A stretch of 60,823 bases of DNA from contig CALIUG010000218.1 in assembly GCA_938048755.1 (NCBI GenBank), positions 1-60,823 of the forward strand. The letters run 5' to 3'. A program made the translations under genes and the position numbers. The notes beneath the pieces are model-generated. The model had not been told where the DNA came from and made no database searches. It saw only the letters and a program-made list of their open reading frames with translations. This DNA comes from an uncultured Alphaproteobacteria bacterium. Its GTDB lineage: Bacteria > Pseudomonadota > Alphaproteobacteria > SP197. Numbering within the stretch: the first letter of the stretch is position 1; every line of letters starts with the position of its first letter. Below, in pieces: positions 57,209 through 60,823 of this stretch.

Positions 57209-58588
57209 TCAGGCCGCCGTGACCGGCAGGGTGGCGCGCGCGACGAGACCGCCGCCGTTGCGTTCCAGCAGGGCGATGTCGCCGCCATGGGCACGCAGGA
57301 TGCTGCGGGCCACGGCAAGGCCAAGTCCGGTGCCGCCGGTCGCGCGGTTGCGCGAGGGTTCGCCGCGCATGAACGGTCGGAACATGGCCTCGCGCTGATC
57401 CTCGGGAATGCCGGGGCCGCGATCAGCAATCTCGATCGTGACGGTATCGCCGGTCTGGCCGAGGCGCACTTCAGCCGAGCCGCCGTAACGCACGGCATTC
57501 TGGATCAGGTTGGCCAGTGCACGGCGCAGGGCGACCGGCCGGCAGGTGATGTTGAGTTTTTCCGGTCCTTCGAAGGACGCGGCCTCACCGGCATCGGAGA
57601 GATCGTCGACCTGGCTCTGCAACAGGGCCGAGAGGTCAACCTTCTGGCGTTCCTCCCGTGCGGCCTCGCCGCGTGCGGCGTCCAGCGCCTCCTTGAGCAT
57701 GACTTCCATGTCGGCCATGTCGGCAAAGGCCTTTTCGCGCTGGGCGTCGTCGTCGATGTCTTCGGCGCGCAGCCGAAGGCGCGTGATGATGGTGCGCAGG
57801 TCGTGGGAGAGGGCAGCCAGCATCAGGCTGCGGTCATCGATCACCAGCCGCAACTGCGCCTGCATTGCGTTGAAAGCGGTCACGGCCCGCCGCACCTCGC
57901 GCGAACCTTTTTCGGGCAGGGGTGGGGCATCAAGATCGACGCTCAGGCGGTCGGCGGCCACGGCCAGGTCACGCAGCGGGCGGGTCAGCCGGTGCGCCAG
58001 AACCAGCGCCACCAACGTCACGATCAGCACGACAAAACCCAGGCGCACCATGGCGGTGACCCCAGGCAGGGTGGCGGTCGGTCGGGCCGGTGCCACGGCC
58101 ACGACCCAGCCGCCATCCTCGACCGGCATGCCGACCATCAGGGTATAAAATCCCGGCCGCCAATGACCCTTTTCAACCGGCGCGGGATCGGCCTCGGGGT
58201 CGAACCTGCCCGGCGTACCGGCCAGGGCATGGATCAGCAGGTCGTCCAACATGGCTTCCGGCGCGGCGTCCCGCGCCTTTTCCTCGATTTCGTCTCCATG
58301 GCGCCAGGGATCGACCGGCGGCAGGGGCCGTTCGGTGGCAAGCCAGACGCGGAAGTCACGCTCGTGATAACTCGCCAGGGCATCGTCGCGGTCCTGCGGG
58401 TCCAAAGCGGCCAGCGCTTCGGCCATGCTGGTCGTGCGTTCGACGACGGCACGGGCAAAGCTGTGCTGTGCAGCCAGTTCGCGGTCGTGGCTGGCGACCA
58501 GGATGCCGCTGCCGATTACCACGGCCAGCACCGAAACGATGAGCAGCGTGAAGGCCGCGGTCGTACCCCAGCCGTGTCGCCGCATCAT
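57209..58588 (-). CDS. Sensor histidine kinase (HAMP-HisKA-HATPase)
   Basis: LSHDLRT, NLIQNAVRYG, DRGPGI, GTGLGL. Confidence 0.93.
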   Translation of the reverse strand: MMRRHGWGTTAAFTLLIVSVLAVVIGSGILVASHDRELAAQHSFARAVVERTTSMAEALAALDPQDRDDALASYHERDFRVWLATERPLPPVDPWRHGDEIEEKARDAAPEAMLDDLLIHALAGTPGRFDPEADPAPVEKGHWRPGFYTLMVGMPVEDGGWVVAVAPARPTATLPGVTAMVRLGFVVLIVTLVALVLAHRLTRPLRDLAVAADRLSVDLDAPPLPEKGSREVRRAVTAFNAMQAQLRLVIDDRSLMLAALSHDLRTIITRLRLRAEDIDDDAQREKAFADMADMEVMLKEALDAARGEAAREERQKVDLSALLQSQVDDLSDAGEAASFEGPEKLNITCRPVALRRALANLIQNAVRYGGSAEVRLGQTGDTVTIEIADRGPGIPEDQREAMFRPFMRGEPSRNRATGGTGLGLAVARSILRAHGGDIALLERNGGGLVARATLPVTAA

Positions 58589-58601
58589 GACGGGACCACG
58601 T

Positions 58602-59315
58602 TCATGCGCGCGTCACGTCGGGGGTGAACTGGTAGCCCCCGCCGCGCACGGTCTTGATGATTTCGGGATTTTTCGGATCGACCTCGATCTTGCGGCGCAG
58701 GCGCGAAAGCTGGACATCGACACTGCGGTCGAACGGCTGGGCCATGCGCCCCTTGGTATAGGTGAGCAACTGATCGCGATCGAGCACGCGCCGGGGATGT
58801 TCCAGAAACGCGATCAGCAGGTCGTACTCTCCCGCCGTCAGGGTGATCAGCGTGCCTTCGGGATCGAACAGTTCGCGCCTGGCAGTGTCGATCTTCCAGC
58901 CGCCGAAGGCATACCGTGCGTCGTTGCCGTCTTCGGCCGGCTGGCCCGAGACGCGGCGCAGCACGGCACGGATGCGCGCCAGCAGTTCGCGCGGGTTGAA
59001 CGGCTTGGTGACGTAGTCATCGGCACCCAGCTCCAGGCCCACGATGCGGTCGGTGTCTTCGGCCAGGGCCGTCAGCATGATGACCGGCACGGTGGAGATC
59101 TGGCGCAGCTTGCGGCAGATCTCGAAGCCGTCATCCCCGGGCAGCATCAGATCCAGCACCACCAGGTCGATATCGCGGTCGCGCACTTCGCGCAGCGCAC
59201 GTTCGCCATCGGGCGCAGTGATGCAGGCCAGGCTGTGCTTCTCCAGGAAGCGGGCCAGCAGCTCGCGAATCTCGGGGTCGTCATCAACGACAAGAATGGT
59301 TGGCACGGTGTTCAT
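58602..59315 (-). CDS. OmpR/CpxR-family response regulator
   Basis: VVDDD, LDLMLP, KPF, DRSVDVQLSRLR, KTVRGGGY. Start at ATG 59315. Confidence 0.93.
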   Translation of the reverse strand: MNTVPTILVVDDDPEIRELLARFLEKHSLACITAPDGERALREVRDRDIDLVVLDLMLPGDDGFEICRKLRQISTVPVIMLTALAEDTDRIVGLELGADDYVTKPFNPRELLARIRAVLRRVSGQPAEDGNDARYAFGGWKIDTARRELFDPEGTLITLTAGEYDLLIAFLEHPRRVLDRDQLLTYTKGRMAQPFDRSVDVQLSRLRRKIEVDPKNPEIIKTVRGGGYQFTPDVTRA

Positions 59316-59359
59316 GCCCTCCAGATAGCGGTTTCGGGGCCCCGGCACAGGGGAAGTTT

Positions 59360-59413
59360 GTAACGCTGTGTAACAGAGACGTTCAAACGCCGGTTTTCGT
59401 TACACAACGTTAC
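59360..59413. promoter_or_regulatory. Two oppositely oriented GTAAC-N5-GTAAC direct-repeat boxes (CpxR-like)
   Basis: 59360-59374 GTAACgctgtGTAAC and 59399-59413 GTTACacaacGTTAC, between the divergent RR and Spy-like genes. Confidence 0.65.
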
Positions 59414-59530
59414 CCGATGACACCTTTTGCGCAACGCACGCGACACAGAGGCCCGCCATCTTGTTTGCATGCAGAGAGCGGGTGAAGCGCTCAACAACAA
59501 CCCGACCTGCATAGGGACCAAACAGAGAGG

Positions 59531-59992
59531 ATGAAGACAATGAAACGTACCAATGCAGTTTACCTGGCCGGGGTTGTTGCTGTCGGCCTGACCGGTGCGG
59601 CCCTGGCGGCCAACAGCGGTGACGGTCACGAGGGTGGCATGTTCGGGAGCCATTGCGACGGCGACCGGGCCATGAAGATGGAAATGATGACCCTCTATGT
59701 CTAGAACCAGCTCGACCTCACCGACGCGCAGCTTCCGGCCTGGAACAACACCGTCGGTGTGCTCGAGGACGCTGCCCAGCAGCGTGCGGCCATGTGCGAT
59801 GCGCTGGCCGAGATGGGCCAGCCCGAAAACGTGATCGAGGCGCTGGACCGTGCCGAACAGCACATGGAGACCGGCCTTGCCACCGTCAGCGAACTCAAGG
59901 GCGCGGTCGGTGATCTCTACGAAGTTCTCGACAACGAACAGCGCGCCACGCTGGACGAGATGATGAAGAACTTCCGCCACATGCGTGGGTAA
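59531..59992 (+). pseudogene. Spy/CpxP-like periplasmic helical protein with an in-frame TAG (59702-59704)
   Basis: Signal peptide, then YV*NQLDLTDAQ (LTxxQ motif), C-terminal LDNEQRATL. The frame is continuous across the stop. Confidence 0.7.
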
Positions 59993-60010
59993 CCCCAAGC
60001 CCCATGCATC

Positions 60011-60364
60011 GCTTTGCCCGCTCCCGGCTCTTTTTTCAGCCCCTGGTAGTCGGGGGCGGGTGAAGCACTTCTTTCTGATGGCCGGCCCTCAGGCGCCGGG
60101 CGGGATGGTTTCCATCCCGAAGCCTGAAACGAGATTCGGGTGCCATGCACCCAACACGTTCGGTACCGGCTTTGATCCGGTGTTCTTTCCAGCCCCTGGT
60201 GCGCTGGGTCGAGGTCGGTACCGTCATGAATGCGCGGGATTCCCCCCAATTGATTCCGCGTATGGTTCCACCCGCCTTTGGTCCTTTTTAGCCCCTGGTG
60301 ACCGGAGGTGGGCGGAGCACCCTCCTTAAAGCGCACCGGGCCCATGACCCCCGTCATGGGCCCG
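60011..60364 (+). ncRNA. Candidate structured ncRNA or 3'-UTR element: array of at least 7 hairpins, three with a conserved AGCCCCUGGU apex
   Basis: Mismatch-free stems of 19, 23 and 13 bp with 4, 7 and 3 G-U pairs, differing in sequence but sharing loops. No expression evidence. Confidence 0.5.
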
Positions 60365-60383
60365 ATGTGTTTTTAAAACCAAC

Positions 60384-60533
60384 CGTCATCGCCCGGCTTG
60401 ACCGGGCGACCCATACCGGTGAACGCAAATCACGCGCTACTGGATGGTTCGGCGTCAACTGTGCACACACAACCCGTCGACGTTGCTTTCCCGGCCTCAG
60501 GCATGGGTGGCCCCATCAAGTGGGGCCATGACG
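60384..60533. repeat. REP-like palindrome, family B
   Basis: CGTCATCGCCCGGCTTGACCGGGCGACCCA...GGGTGGCCCCATCAAGTGGGGCCATGACG. Confidence 0.75.
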
Positions 60534-60625
60534 AAAAATGGATGTGGCGGTGCCCTACGGTCAGTGCAGGAGAGGTTTTCACGCAGAGACGCAGGGATGT
60601 TCGAACCACACCACCCGTTCGTCCA

Positions 60626-60767
60626 GCACCCTGCACCGCTGGTGAGCAGGCAATCGGCGGCGAGAGCGAAGCGGCCGCCGACCGGTGCGACCGCACCGGC
60701 GGGCCGGTCAGGCCCGGAAGCCGAGTGAGCGGAGCGAACGCCCGGCGCTTGAGGGAACAAACATAAA
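60626..60767 (-). repeat. Left arm/TIR of the composite element, inverted
   Basis: Near-identical to 15915-16067. Its terminal 29 nt are the reverse complement of 22628-22656. Confidence 0.8.
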
Positions 60768-60823
60768 CAGCGGAGCGATTTCCCCGGTTACTGGTCCCGG
60801 AAGCGCCCGGTCACCAACCCGCT

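Follow-up and report, generated by a model that had tools for sequence, protein, structure and literature searches.

What is the chain of stable hairpins that follows a gene for an LTXXQ (CpxP/Spy-family) periplasmic protein in an uncultured alphaproteobacterium, and what might it do there? The window considered here is the whole stretch of 60,823 nucleotides of contig CALIUG010000218.1 (assembly GCA_938048755.1), read on its forward strand; its genome is denoted G000, and the other G and L labels denote the genomes and loci that were compared with it. An earlier note, made from the letters of the window alone, had proposed that hairpins behind this gene form a novel structured RNA of the plus strand, with kept loops on diverging stems. 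We find that the element, at positions 59981-60374, is a hairpin chain of about 390 nt, which lies directly behind the LTXXQ gene and on the gene's own strand only, and the proposal is upheld by the absence of an Rfam match, the confinement of the units to a single locus and the existence of covarying homologs. In our assessment, a plus-strand RNA structure maintained by selection is highly probable.

The three long stems of the array, referred to here as U1, U2 and U3, were re-paired by hand. U1 (60011-29/60048-66) has 19 bp including 4 G-U pairs, U2 (60161-83/60201-23) has 23 bp including 7, and U3 (60271-83/60300-12) has 13 bp including 3, and as had been claimed, they are free of mismatches only when G-U pairs are allowed. 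Inward of each stem lie a pyrimidine bulge of 4-6 nt (CTTTTT, TCTTT and CTTT, respectively), the sequence YYAG-CCC-CTGG and one unpaired T. RNAfold recovers the long stems along with hairpins at about 60101-17, 60138-52, 60230-63 (H4, loop CCCCCCAAUU) and 60337-64 (loop CCCC), so that all of the further hairpins named in the earlier note appear in the predicted fold. The proposed strand specificity also holds, as the plus strand of 59993-60385 folds at -204.7 kcal/mol (z = -9.55; none of 100 shuffles does as well) and the minus strand at -172 kcal/mol (z = -2.46), both calculated with RNAfold. Likewise, for 10 of 11 homologs the plus-strand fold has the better energy of the two strands, with a margin of 11-41 kcal/mol, and in most homologs the plus strand has about twice as many G-U pairs. 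The start of the array had been placed 19 nt past the stop codon of the gene; this needs correction, since a 9-bp hairpin, H0 (59981-60009), encloses the stop codon itself.

The stems covary among homologs. The segment comprising H0 and U1, aligned over nine sequences, has 95.0% of its cells paired, compared with 44-51% in slid controls, and its covariation score of 0.290 (0.218 when shuffled) is reached by 0 of 500 shuffles, with six double-changed pairs. Within it, the 3' arm of H0 varies yet stays paired in all nine sequences (GC/GU, UA/UG/CG), and U1 (helix 2 of alignment A6) has four double-changed pairs and 95% of its cells paired. The corresponding segment of H4 and U3, also over nine sequences, is paired in 95.1% of its cells, against 39-57% in slid controls, with a score of 0.339 versus 0.255 shuffled (0 of 500 as high); the H4 helix (helix 1 of alignment A7) is 100% paired with three double-changed pairs. 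Compensatory double changes are found in four pairs of U2 among five orthologs, and the hairpin at 60138-52 reads GGGUG/CACCC here and GGACG/CGUCC in L024. When the U1-like units are pooled into 17 distinct rows, in an alignment that was fitted to the model and leans towards structure, 96.2% of the cells are paired over 17 pairs and 97.7% over the 13-bp stem (40-55% in slid controls), the score is 0.440 versus 0.224 shuffled (0 of 500 as high), and 8 of the 13 stem pairs are double-changed. The shuffle control ignores phylogeny, whereas the slid controls keep it and are equally clear.

Across homologs, the hairpins fall into two recurrent types. Type A, to which the pooled units belong, has a long stem and an apex of 12-18 nt containing GCCCCUGG, usually with U-rich sequence before it, while type B has a stem of 9-12 bp and a loop containing CCCC(CC)AA(G/U); H0 belongs to type B. 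Of the 17 distinct A units, in which most stem columns vary, 16 have GCCCCUGG unaltered, and both GCCCCUGG and CCCCAA stay in exposed loops across relatives. The earlier note had described a bulge, a 4-bp mini-stem and a CCC loop as the apical module, which is accurate for U1, U2 and U3 of this window; the mini-stem extends to the close clade of G000 and is missing from distant homologs. As a conserved helix the mini-stem YYAG/CUGG was rejected, since the close clade has one-sided changes only and the pairing is broken in L031, L038, L039 and G021. The loops of the array read GCCCCUGG, CCCCCCAA, CCCCAAG and CCCC. Runs of at least four C are mostly in loops or linkers, with unpaired probabilities of 0.67-1.0 (0.43-0.6 for a few linker runs) compared with a mean of about 0.3; for example, the value is 0.99 for the C-run in the loop of H0 and 0.98 for the loop of H4. 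Some C-runs are instead buried in stem arms, viz., one in the 3' arm of H0 at most loci and up to three in G021, L031 and L039. Each homolog thus displays 4-6 exposed tracts of four to seven C.

The array also retains signs of how it grew. The earlier note had taken the stem sequences to be unrelated. However, U1 and U3 arose by duplication and have since diverged; they are 78% identical over 36 nt and have a common frame, CCCGC...CCGG / CGG..GG.GGG, and U2 is the most diverged. A covariance model, R2, built from H0 and U1 also matches H4 and U3 (60230-60320 in G000, E = 3.5e-7, as well as in G003 and G021), and H4 has as its 5' arm ATGCGCGGG, which was copied from the gene end, ATGCGTGGG. Thus, the array expanded as a B+A module, with the last codons of the gene in it, underwent tandem duplication. 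In a second genus, g2 (L043 and L044), the first hairpin H0 lies 7 nt past the true stop codon and carries a copy of the gene end, ATGCGCGGGTGA; H0 has been kept there although it is uncoupled from the stop codon. The order of hairpins at L039 is B-A-B-A'-B-A, and the distant loci L031 and L038 have H0-A-x-B-A only, the last A unit (the U3 hairpin) of L031 being itself followed by UUUUU. U2 is confined to the clade of G000, G003, L024 and L028.

The array is found behind the LTXXQ gene in G003 (86% DNA identity) and G021, in two species of genus g2 (G030, locus L043, and G027, locus L044), and on metagenome contigs whose LTXXQ proteins are 90, 73, 59, 57 and 52% identical. Most homologs were obtained via homologous proteins and the contigs encoding them; scans with the LTXXQ protein gave two loci on public genome contigs and one on metagenome contigs. 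All loci have a common layout, viz., histidine kinase and response regulator, LTXXQ gene, array and PEP-mutase gene. Carriers are five of the 33 genomes of the family (the 33 being also the whole sample of the order), in two genera, and two more genomes hold remnants; among 400 genomes sampled from across the class, no array was found outside the family. Relatives with names are marine metagenome-assembled genomes labelled Rhodospirillaceae or Alphaproteobacteria.

The two remnants differ in extent. In G007 (L048, 1480-1800), the two-component system is gone, with hrcA-grpE in its place, the last 29 codons of the gene remain, H0, U1 and H4 are decayed and the apex is mutated to GAGCCATTGATGA. 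In G018 (L003, 1480-1600), only a damaged U3, with half of its 5' arm deleted, and the terminator are present beside the PEP-mutase gene. The decay of the array where the two-component system and most of the gene have been lost fits a dependence of the array on transcription of the gene. Two other copies are irregular. On a metagenome contig whose LTXXQ protein is 86% identical (L037, 813-1178), U2 is deleted and loops carry C-to-T changes (H4 loop UUUUUUCCAAA, U3 apex GCCCCUGUU); either the copy is decaying or the assembly is of low quality. On L029, a Logan contig of SRR30352471, the contig end (1143-1210) joins the 5' arm and apex of U1 to the 3' arm of U2, which reflects either a deletion by recombination between identical 23-nt apices or an assembly chimera.

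Within its own genome, the array stands alone. The 4.16-Mb assembly has five occurrences of the motif TTYYAGCCCCTGG, of which three are the units and two have no stem, and a genome motif scan found the apical motif with a T-rich flank at the three units only. The array is likewise the only match of the unit covariance model R1 in this genome. Blastn-short found no second copy of any part of the array in this genome except a 22-nt piece of a linker (60084-60107), a single-copy result which, the assembly being in 301 contigs, leaves some room for collapsed repeat copies. Searching 59000-60823 against Rfam 15 with cmscan at E <= 10 yielded only chance matches to small nucleolar RNA and microRNA models (16-19 bits) and no family match. 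A coding role for the open reading frames of 114 (plus strand) and 146 (minus strand) amino acids that lie over the array was rejected, since both are broken by indels of 1, 2 and 4 nt between G000 and G003.

The features of the array and its surroundings are listed below.

Features of the hairpin array and of the neighbouring genes, in coordinates of the window
Feature	Position	Strand or location	Description
HAMP histidine kinase gene	57209-58588	minus	
OmpR-type response regulator gene	58602-59348	minus	
Candidate response-regulator boxes, GTAAC-N5-GTAAC and inverted GTTAC-N5-GTTAC	59360-74, 59399-413	divergent promoter region	inverted repeat I5
LTXXQ (CpxP/Spy-family) periplasmic protein gene	59531-59992	+	Pfam PF07813, E = 2.7e-14
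H0, 9-bp hairpin, B-type loop	59981-60009	+	5' arm formed by the last codons, ATGCGTGGG; loop formed by the stop codon and CCCCAAG
U1, A-type	60011-60066	+	19-bp stem, apex CUUUUUUCAGCCCCUGGU; covariance model R1, 65 bits
Variable linker that contains two small hairpins, at about 60101-17 and 60138-52	60067-60160	+	predicted fold
U2, A-type	60161-60223	+	23-bp stem, apex UCUUUCCAGCCCCUGGU
H4, B-type	60230-60263	+	12-bp stem, loop CCCCCCAAUU, 5' arm ATGCGCGGG
U3, A-type	60265-60320	+	13-bp inner and 5-bp outer stem, apex CUUUUUAGCCCCUGGU; R1, 64.2 bits
Linker CACCCUCCUUAAA, anti-Shine-Dalgarno-like	60318-60330	+	between U3 and terminator
Intrinsic terminator	60337-60374	+	12-bp stem (9 GC), loop CCCC, TTTTT at 60370-74; terminator scan

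The last hairpin is the only one of this array that combines a GC-rich stem with a run of U on the gene's strand, as in an intrinsic terminator, and it is kept in G003, L024, L028 and G018. The linker before it, CACCCUCCUUAAA, is kept in G003, L024, L028 and L037 and is not found in G021 or L039; its resemblance to an anti-Shine-Dalgarno sequence may point to a function. Behind U1 lies a U-rich linker, which reads CACUUCUUUCUGAU / ACUUCUUUCUGAU here and has six to seven U in G003 and L024. By analogy, this linker may correspond to the U-adjacent RNase E sites from which the CcsR RNAs described below are released, and in G003 and L024 U1 would perhaps act as a leaky terminator.

The LTXXQ protein has a signal-peptide-like N-terminus, and its gene is divergent from the genes of the regulator and the kinase. 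These two score best with the OmpR and EnvZ models, followed by CpxR and CpxA among others, all scores being below the curated cut-offs. Between the divergent genes, the direct repeat and its inverted counterpart are 24 nt apart and are kept at every homologous locus, even at 52% protein identity. Their sequence is similar to that of the CpxR site, GTAAA-N4-8-GTAAA (PMC5063474), and, judging from it, the regulator may bind them. Downstream, a gene of the PEP-mutase family lies on the opposite strand, convergent with the LTXXQ gene. We note that the LTXXQ gene of this genome has an in-frame TAG at 59702-59704 (GTCTAGAAC here versus GTCGAAGAC in G003, L024 and L028), where relatives have GAA; of four successive bases, three are changed. 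The RNA array that follows the gene is undamaged. Possibly the gene has recently become a pseudogene in this genome, or the TAG results from an assembly error.

Does the array belong to a known type of RNA? The closest resemblance in position is to CpxQ. CpxQ is a short Hfq-dependent small RNA (sRNA) that is released by RNase E. In Salmonella and E. coli, it is made from the 3' untranslated region (UTR) of cpxP (PMC4817254). The array likewise occupies the 3' UTR of a CpxP-family gene, next to a divergent two-component system and GTAAx-N5-GTAAx boxes. However, CpxQ has no array of C-loop hairpins, the regulator here scores best with the OmpR/EnvZ models, though below cut-offs, and the cmscan search described above found no similarity to CpxQ, a model for which is perhaps not in that Rfam release. 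The relation to CpxQ is one of position and convergence only.

In architecture, the array is similar to the cuckoo/CcsR RNAs of alphaproteobacteria, which are chains of adjacent hairpins with one conserved C-rich loop motif and stems dominated by compensatory changes (PMC4615179). In Rhodobacter, the 3' UTR of the stress-induced ccaF1 holds CcsR1-4, four homologous RNAs of two hairpins each, which RNase E, cutting next to U residues, frees from a precursor of about 400 nt (PMC8034643). The array of this window is of similar length, lies in a 3' UTR and has U-rich linkers, and its adjacent hairpins have shared loop motifs on variable, compensated stems, in line with the two to four adjacent hairpins of that group. 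It differs from cuckoo/CcsR RNAs in its loops (GCCCCUGG and CCCCAA instead of CCUCCUCCC), in its two alternating hairpin types and much longer stems (13-23 bp), in having no Rfam match, and in its host gene, which encodes LTXXQ (PF07813) and not DUF1127 (CIN1 locus).

The C-rich loops have counterparts elsewhere. AbnZ of Caulobacter crescentus is cut out of the 3' terminus of an envelope efflux pump's mRNA and has three stable hairpins, the C-rich loops of which base-pair, independently of Hfq, with G tracts of the leader of tamAB (PMC11724286). The hairpins of the array are likewise very GC-rich and stable with homopolymeric C loops. However, AbnZ has 7 and 16 consecutive C in two loops without further conserved context, whereas the tracts of four to six C here are set within invariant 8-nt motifs repeated 4-6 times; also, the host operon of AbnZ is acrAB-nodT and no sequence homology was detected between the two. 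The Xanthomonas sX13 has three hairpins with CCCC/CCCCC apical loops and represses mRNAs with GGGG near their starts, also independently of Hfq (PMC3771888), and the Listeria LhrC is described as a multicopy sRNA with C-rich loops that is induced by an envelope-stress two-component system (PMC4132741). The array has C-rich-loop hairpins like sX13, LhrC and the actinobacterial 6C, but those are free-standing sRNA genes of about 100 nt, unlike the 3' UTR array of about 390 nt seen here, which differs in sequence and has no match in Rfam. Thus, the element belongs to none of the cuckoo/CcsR, CpxQ, AbnZ and sX13 families. The earlier note had drawn an analogy to multi-site sRNAs such as the cuckoo RNAs or to sponges of the CsrB type; the former is apt, while the latter is weaker, as no conserved loop of the array has the GGA of CsrB/RsmZ-type sponges. 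With runs of at least four C exposed in the apical loops of several stable hairpins, the array appears to fit the C-rich-loop class (AbnZ, sX13, CcsR), which acts by base pairing, better than the CsrB type.

Based on these comparisons, we suggest, with about even chances of being right, that the array is a regulatory RNA borne by the 3' UTR of the LTXXQ mRNA, the C-rich loops of which pair with G-rich sites in mRNAs. In this proposal, 59981-60374 would be the structured 3' part of the LTXXQ mRNA within a Cpx-like divergent arrangement, and its building block would be a B hairpin (CCCCAA loop) followed by an A hairpin (GCCCCUGG apex with a U-rich bulge before it). The first module would overlap the stop codon, tandem duplication together with the gene end would have produced more modules, and the CCCC-loop terminator would close the RNA. 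The RNA would be made when the LTXXQ promoter fires, presumably upon envelope stress, and would possibly be trimmed at the U-rich linkers; its 4-6 exposed C-tracts would then pair with G-rich sites near ribosome-binding regions and lower the translation of other mRNAs. The pairing of C loops with G tracts in trans is itself a possible mode of action that falls slightly short of an even chance, being argued by analogy with AbnZ, sX13 and the Rhodobacter CcsR RNAs. In a crude set of 456 start sites, the Shine-Dalgarno zone often contains GGGG. Pairing in cis of the C loops with the mRNA that carries them was considered and rejected, since six homologs have no conserved GGGG in either their 5' UTR or their coding sequence.

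Several observations weigh against a regulatory RNA of this kind. In the same crude set of start sites, the loop complements CCAGGGG, CAGGGGC, TTGGGG and CTTGGGG are not enriched in the Shine-Dalgarno zone, where their fractions are 0.33-0.42, compared with 0.6 for GGAGG and a baseline of about 0.4, and the list of candidate sites near putative starts is too noisy to use. The invariance of the 8-nt GCCCCUGG over two genera exceeds what a generic C-tract seed calls for and could just as well mark a protein site, and trans-acting sRNAs do not usually have perfect stems of 19-23 bp, which would be substrates of RNase III. With its in-frame TAG, the LTXXQ mRNA may be poorly expressed in this genome. 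No sigma-70-like promoter was found in 59300-60823, so that use of the LTXXQ promoter is argued from gene order. Finally, two of the alignments, A5 and A12, were fitted to the model and so favour the structure.

Some of these points would suit a protein partner. A binding scaffold or sponge, in which the GCCCCUGG and CCCCAA loops are sites of an RNA-binding protein that is titrated or recruited upon induction of the LTXXQ mRNA, would account for eight invariant loop nucleotides being shown on hairpins 4-6 times per RNA, for the alternation of two distinct loop motifs in a fixed order and for the lack of an enriched complementary motif in the crude start-site set, and the long perfect stems would also be in keeping with it. 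A precedent is the binding of the Rhodobacter CcsR precursor by the protein CcaF1 (PMC8034643). We nevertheless regard this explanation as unlikely, since no candidate protein co-occurs with the array besides the periplasmic LTXXQ protein and the two-component system, the loops do not contain the GGA of CsrA/RsmE sites, and C-tract loops have repeatedly been shown to base-pair (PMC11724286, PMC3771888).

It is equally doubtful that the role of the array lies purely in cis, with hairpins that shield the LTXXQ mRNA from 3' exonucleases and insulate the convergent genes from each other, U1 serving as a leaky terminator, and without any function in trans. Such a role would agree with the position of the array between the convergent LTXXQ (plus strand) and PEP-mutase (minus strand) genes, with the intrinsic terminator that forms its last hairpin, with the six to seven U behind U1 in G003 and L024, and with its decay upon loss of the gene. 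However, stability and termination require stems, whereas here the loops are best conserved while the stems drift; moreover, the modules were duplicated and kept, and genus g2 retains H0 without its overlap with the stop codon. Together with the protein scaffold, this is the rival reading to be taken seriously.

A more elaborate possibility, to which we assign a rather low probability, is that the array is a translation-coupled, multivalent RNA device which arose in a marine alphaproteobacterial lineage, independently of CpxQ, in the same position of a Cpx-like envelope-stress module. With the stop codon inside H0, ribosomes have to open this hairpin when they terminate, and this could couple downstream folding, processing or release to translation of the chaperone gene. 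The two alternating, invariant 8-nt loop motifs would in that case be read by a dedicated protein or by one conserved RNA, and not by G tracts of a generic kind.

An element acting at the level of DNA, i.e., palindromes of the repetitive extragenic palindromic (REP), bacterial interspersed mosaic element (BIME) or miniature inverted-repeat transposable element (MITE) type or a recombination site, is very improbable and already largely refuted, since, despite the dispersed repeats just downstream and a 22-nt piece inside the array with about five copies elsewhere, the units have no further occurrence in the genome, lie at one syntenic locus in every carrier, would have C-A mismatches in place of G-U pairs on the other strand, where folding is weaker, and have no plasmid or phage match. 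The earlier note had itself named dispersed, high-copy REP-type repeats as an alternative; that identity, whether REP, BIME or MITE, is rejected by the motif scan, the covariance-model search and the blastn search of the whole genome. A plasmid or phage origin was likewise rejected, as blastn of the array against plasmid and phage collections gave no match.

The repeats next to the array deserve description. Between the terminator and the convergent PEP-mutase gene, 60376-60795 is a 420-bp mosaic of dispersed, MITE- or REP-like repeats, which comprises a piece of about 30 nt (about 8 copies), a piece of about 40 nt (about 18 copies) and an element of about 150 nt at 60626-60778 with more than 40 copies of 88-98% identity. 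Since these repeats sit in the 420 bp past the terminator, the REP/MITE elements are next door to the array and not in it. Among the homologous loci, the more distant L028, L031 and L032 do not have the mosaic. Within the linker between U1 and U2, 60084-60107 holds a piece of 17-22 nt, GGCCGGCCCTCAGGCGCCGGGCGG, with about five exact or near-exact copies on other contigs, and its inverted partner lies 636 nt downstream, at 60739-60755, within the mosaic.

Taken as a regulatory RNA, the array is most likely new as a family, confined to one family of marine alphaproteobacteria, and of a mechanistic class that is already known. If it is transcribed, it would constitute a new RNA family with unusually clean comparative support, the practical reach of which is modest because its carriers are uncultured or little-studied marine Rhodospirillaceae-like bacteria. 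The array makes visible a route by which such RNAs grow, in which tandem duplication acted on a two-hairpin module with the gene's last codons in it, and the loops of the copies were kept while the stems drifted. If the array is transcribed, CpxP-family genes of two distant proteobacterial classes would each have gained a regulatory RNA in their 3' UTR, and a protein arm and an RNA arm would have been wired convergently within one envelope-stress transcript.

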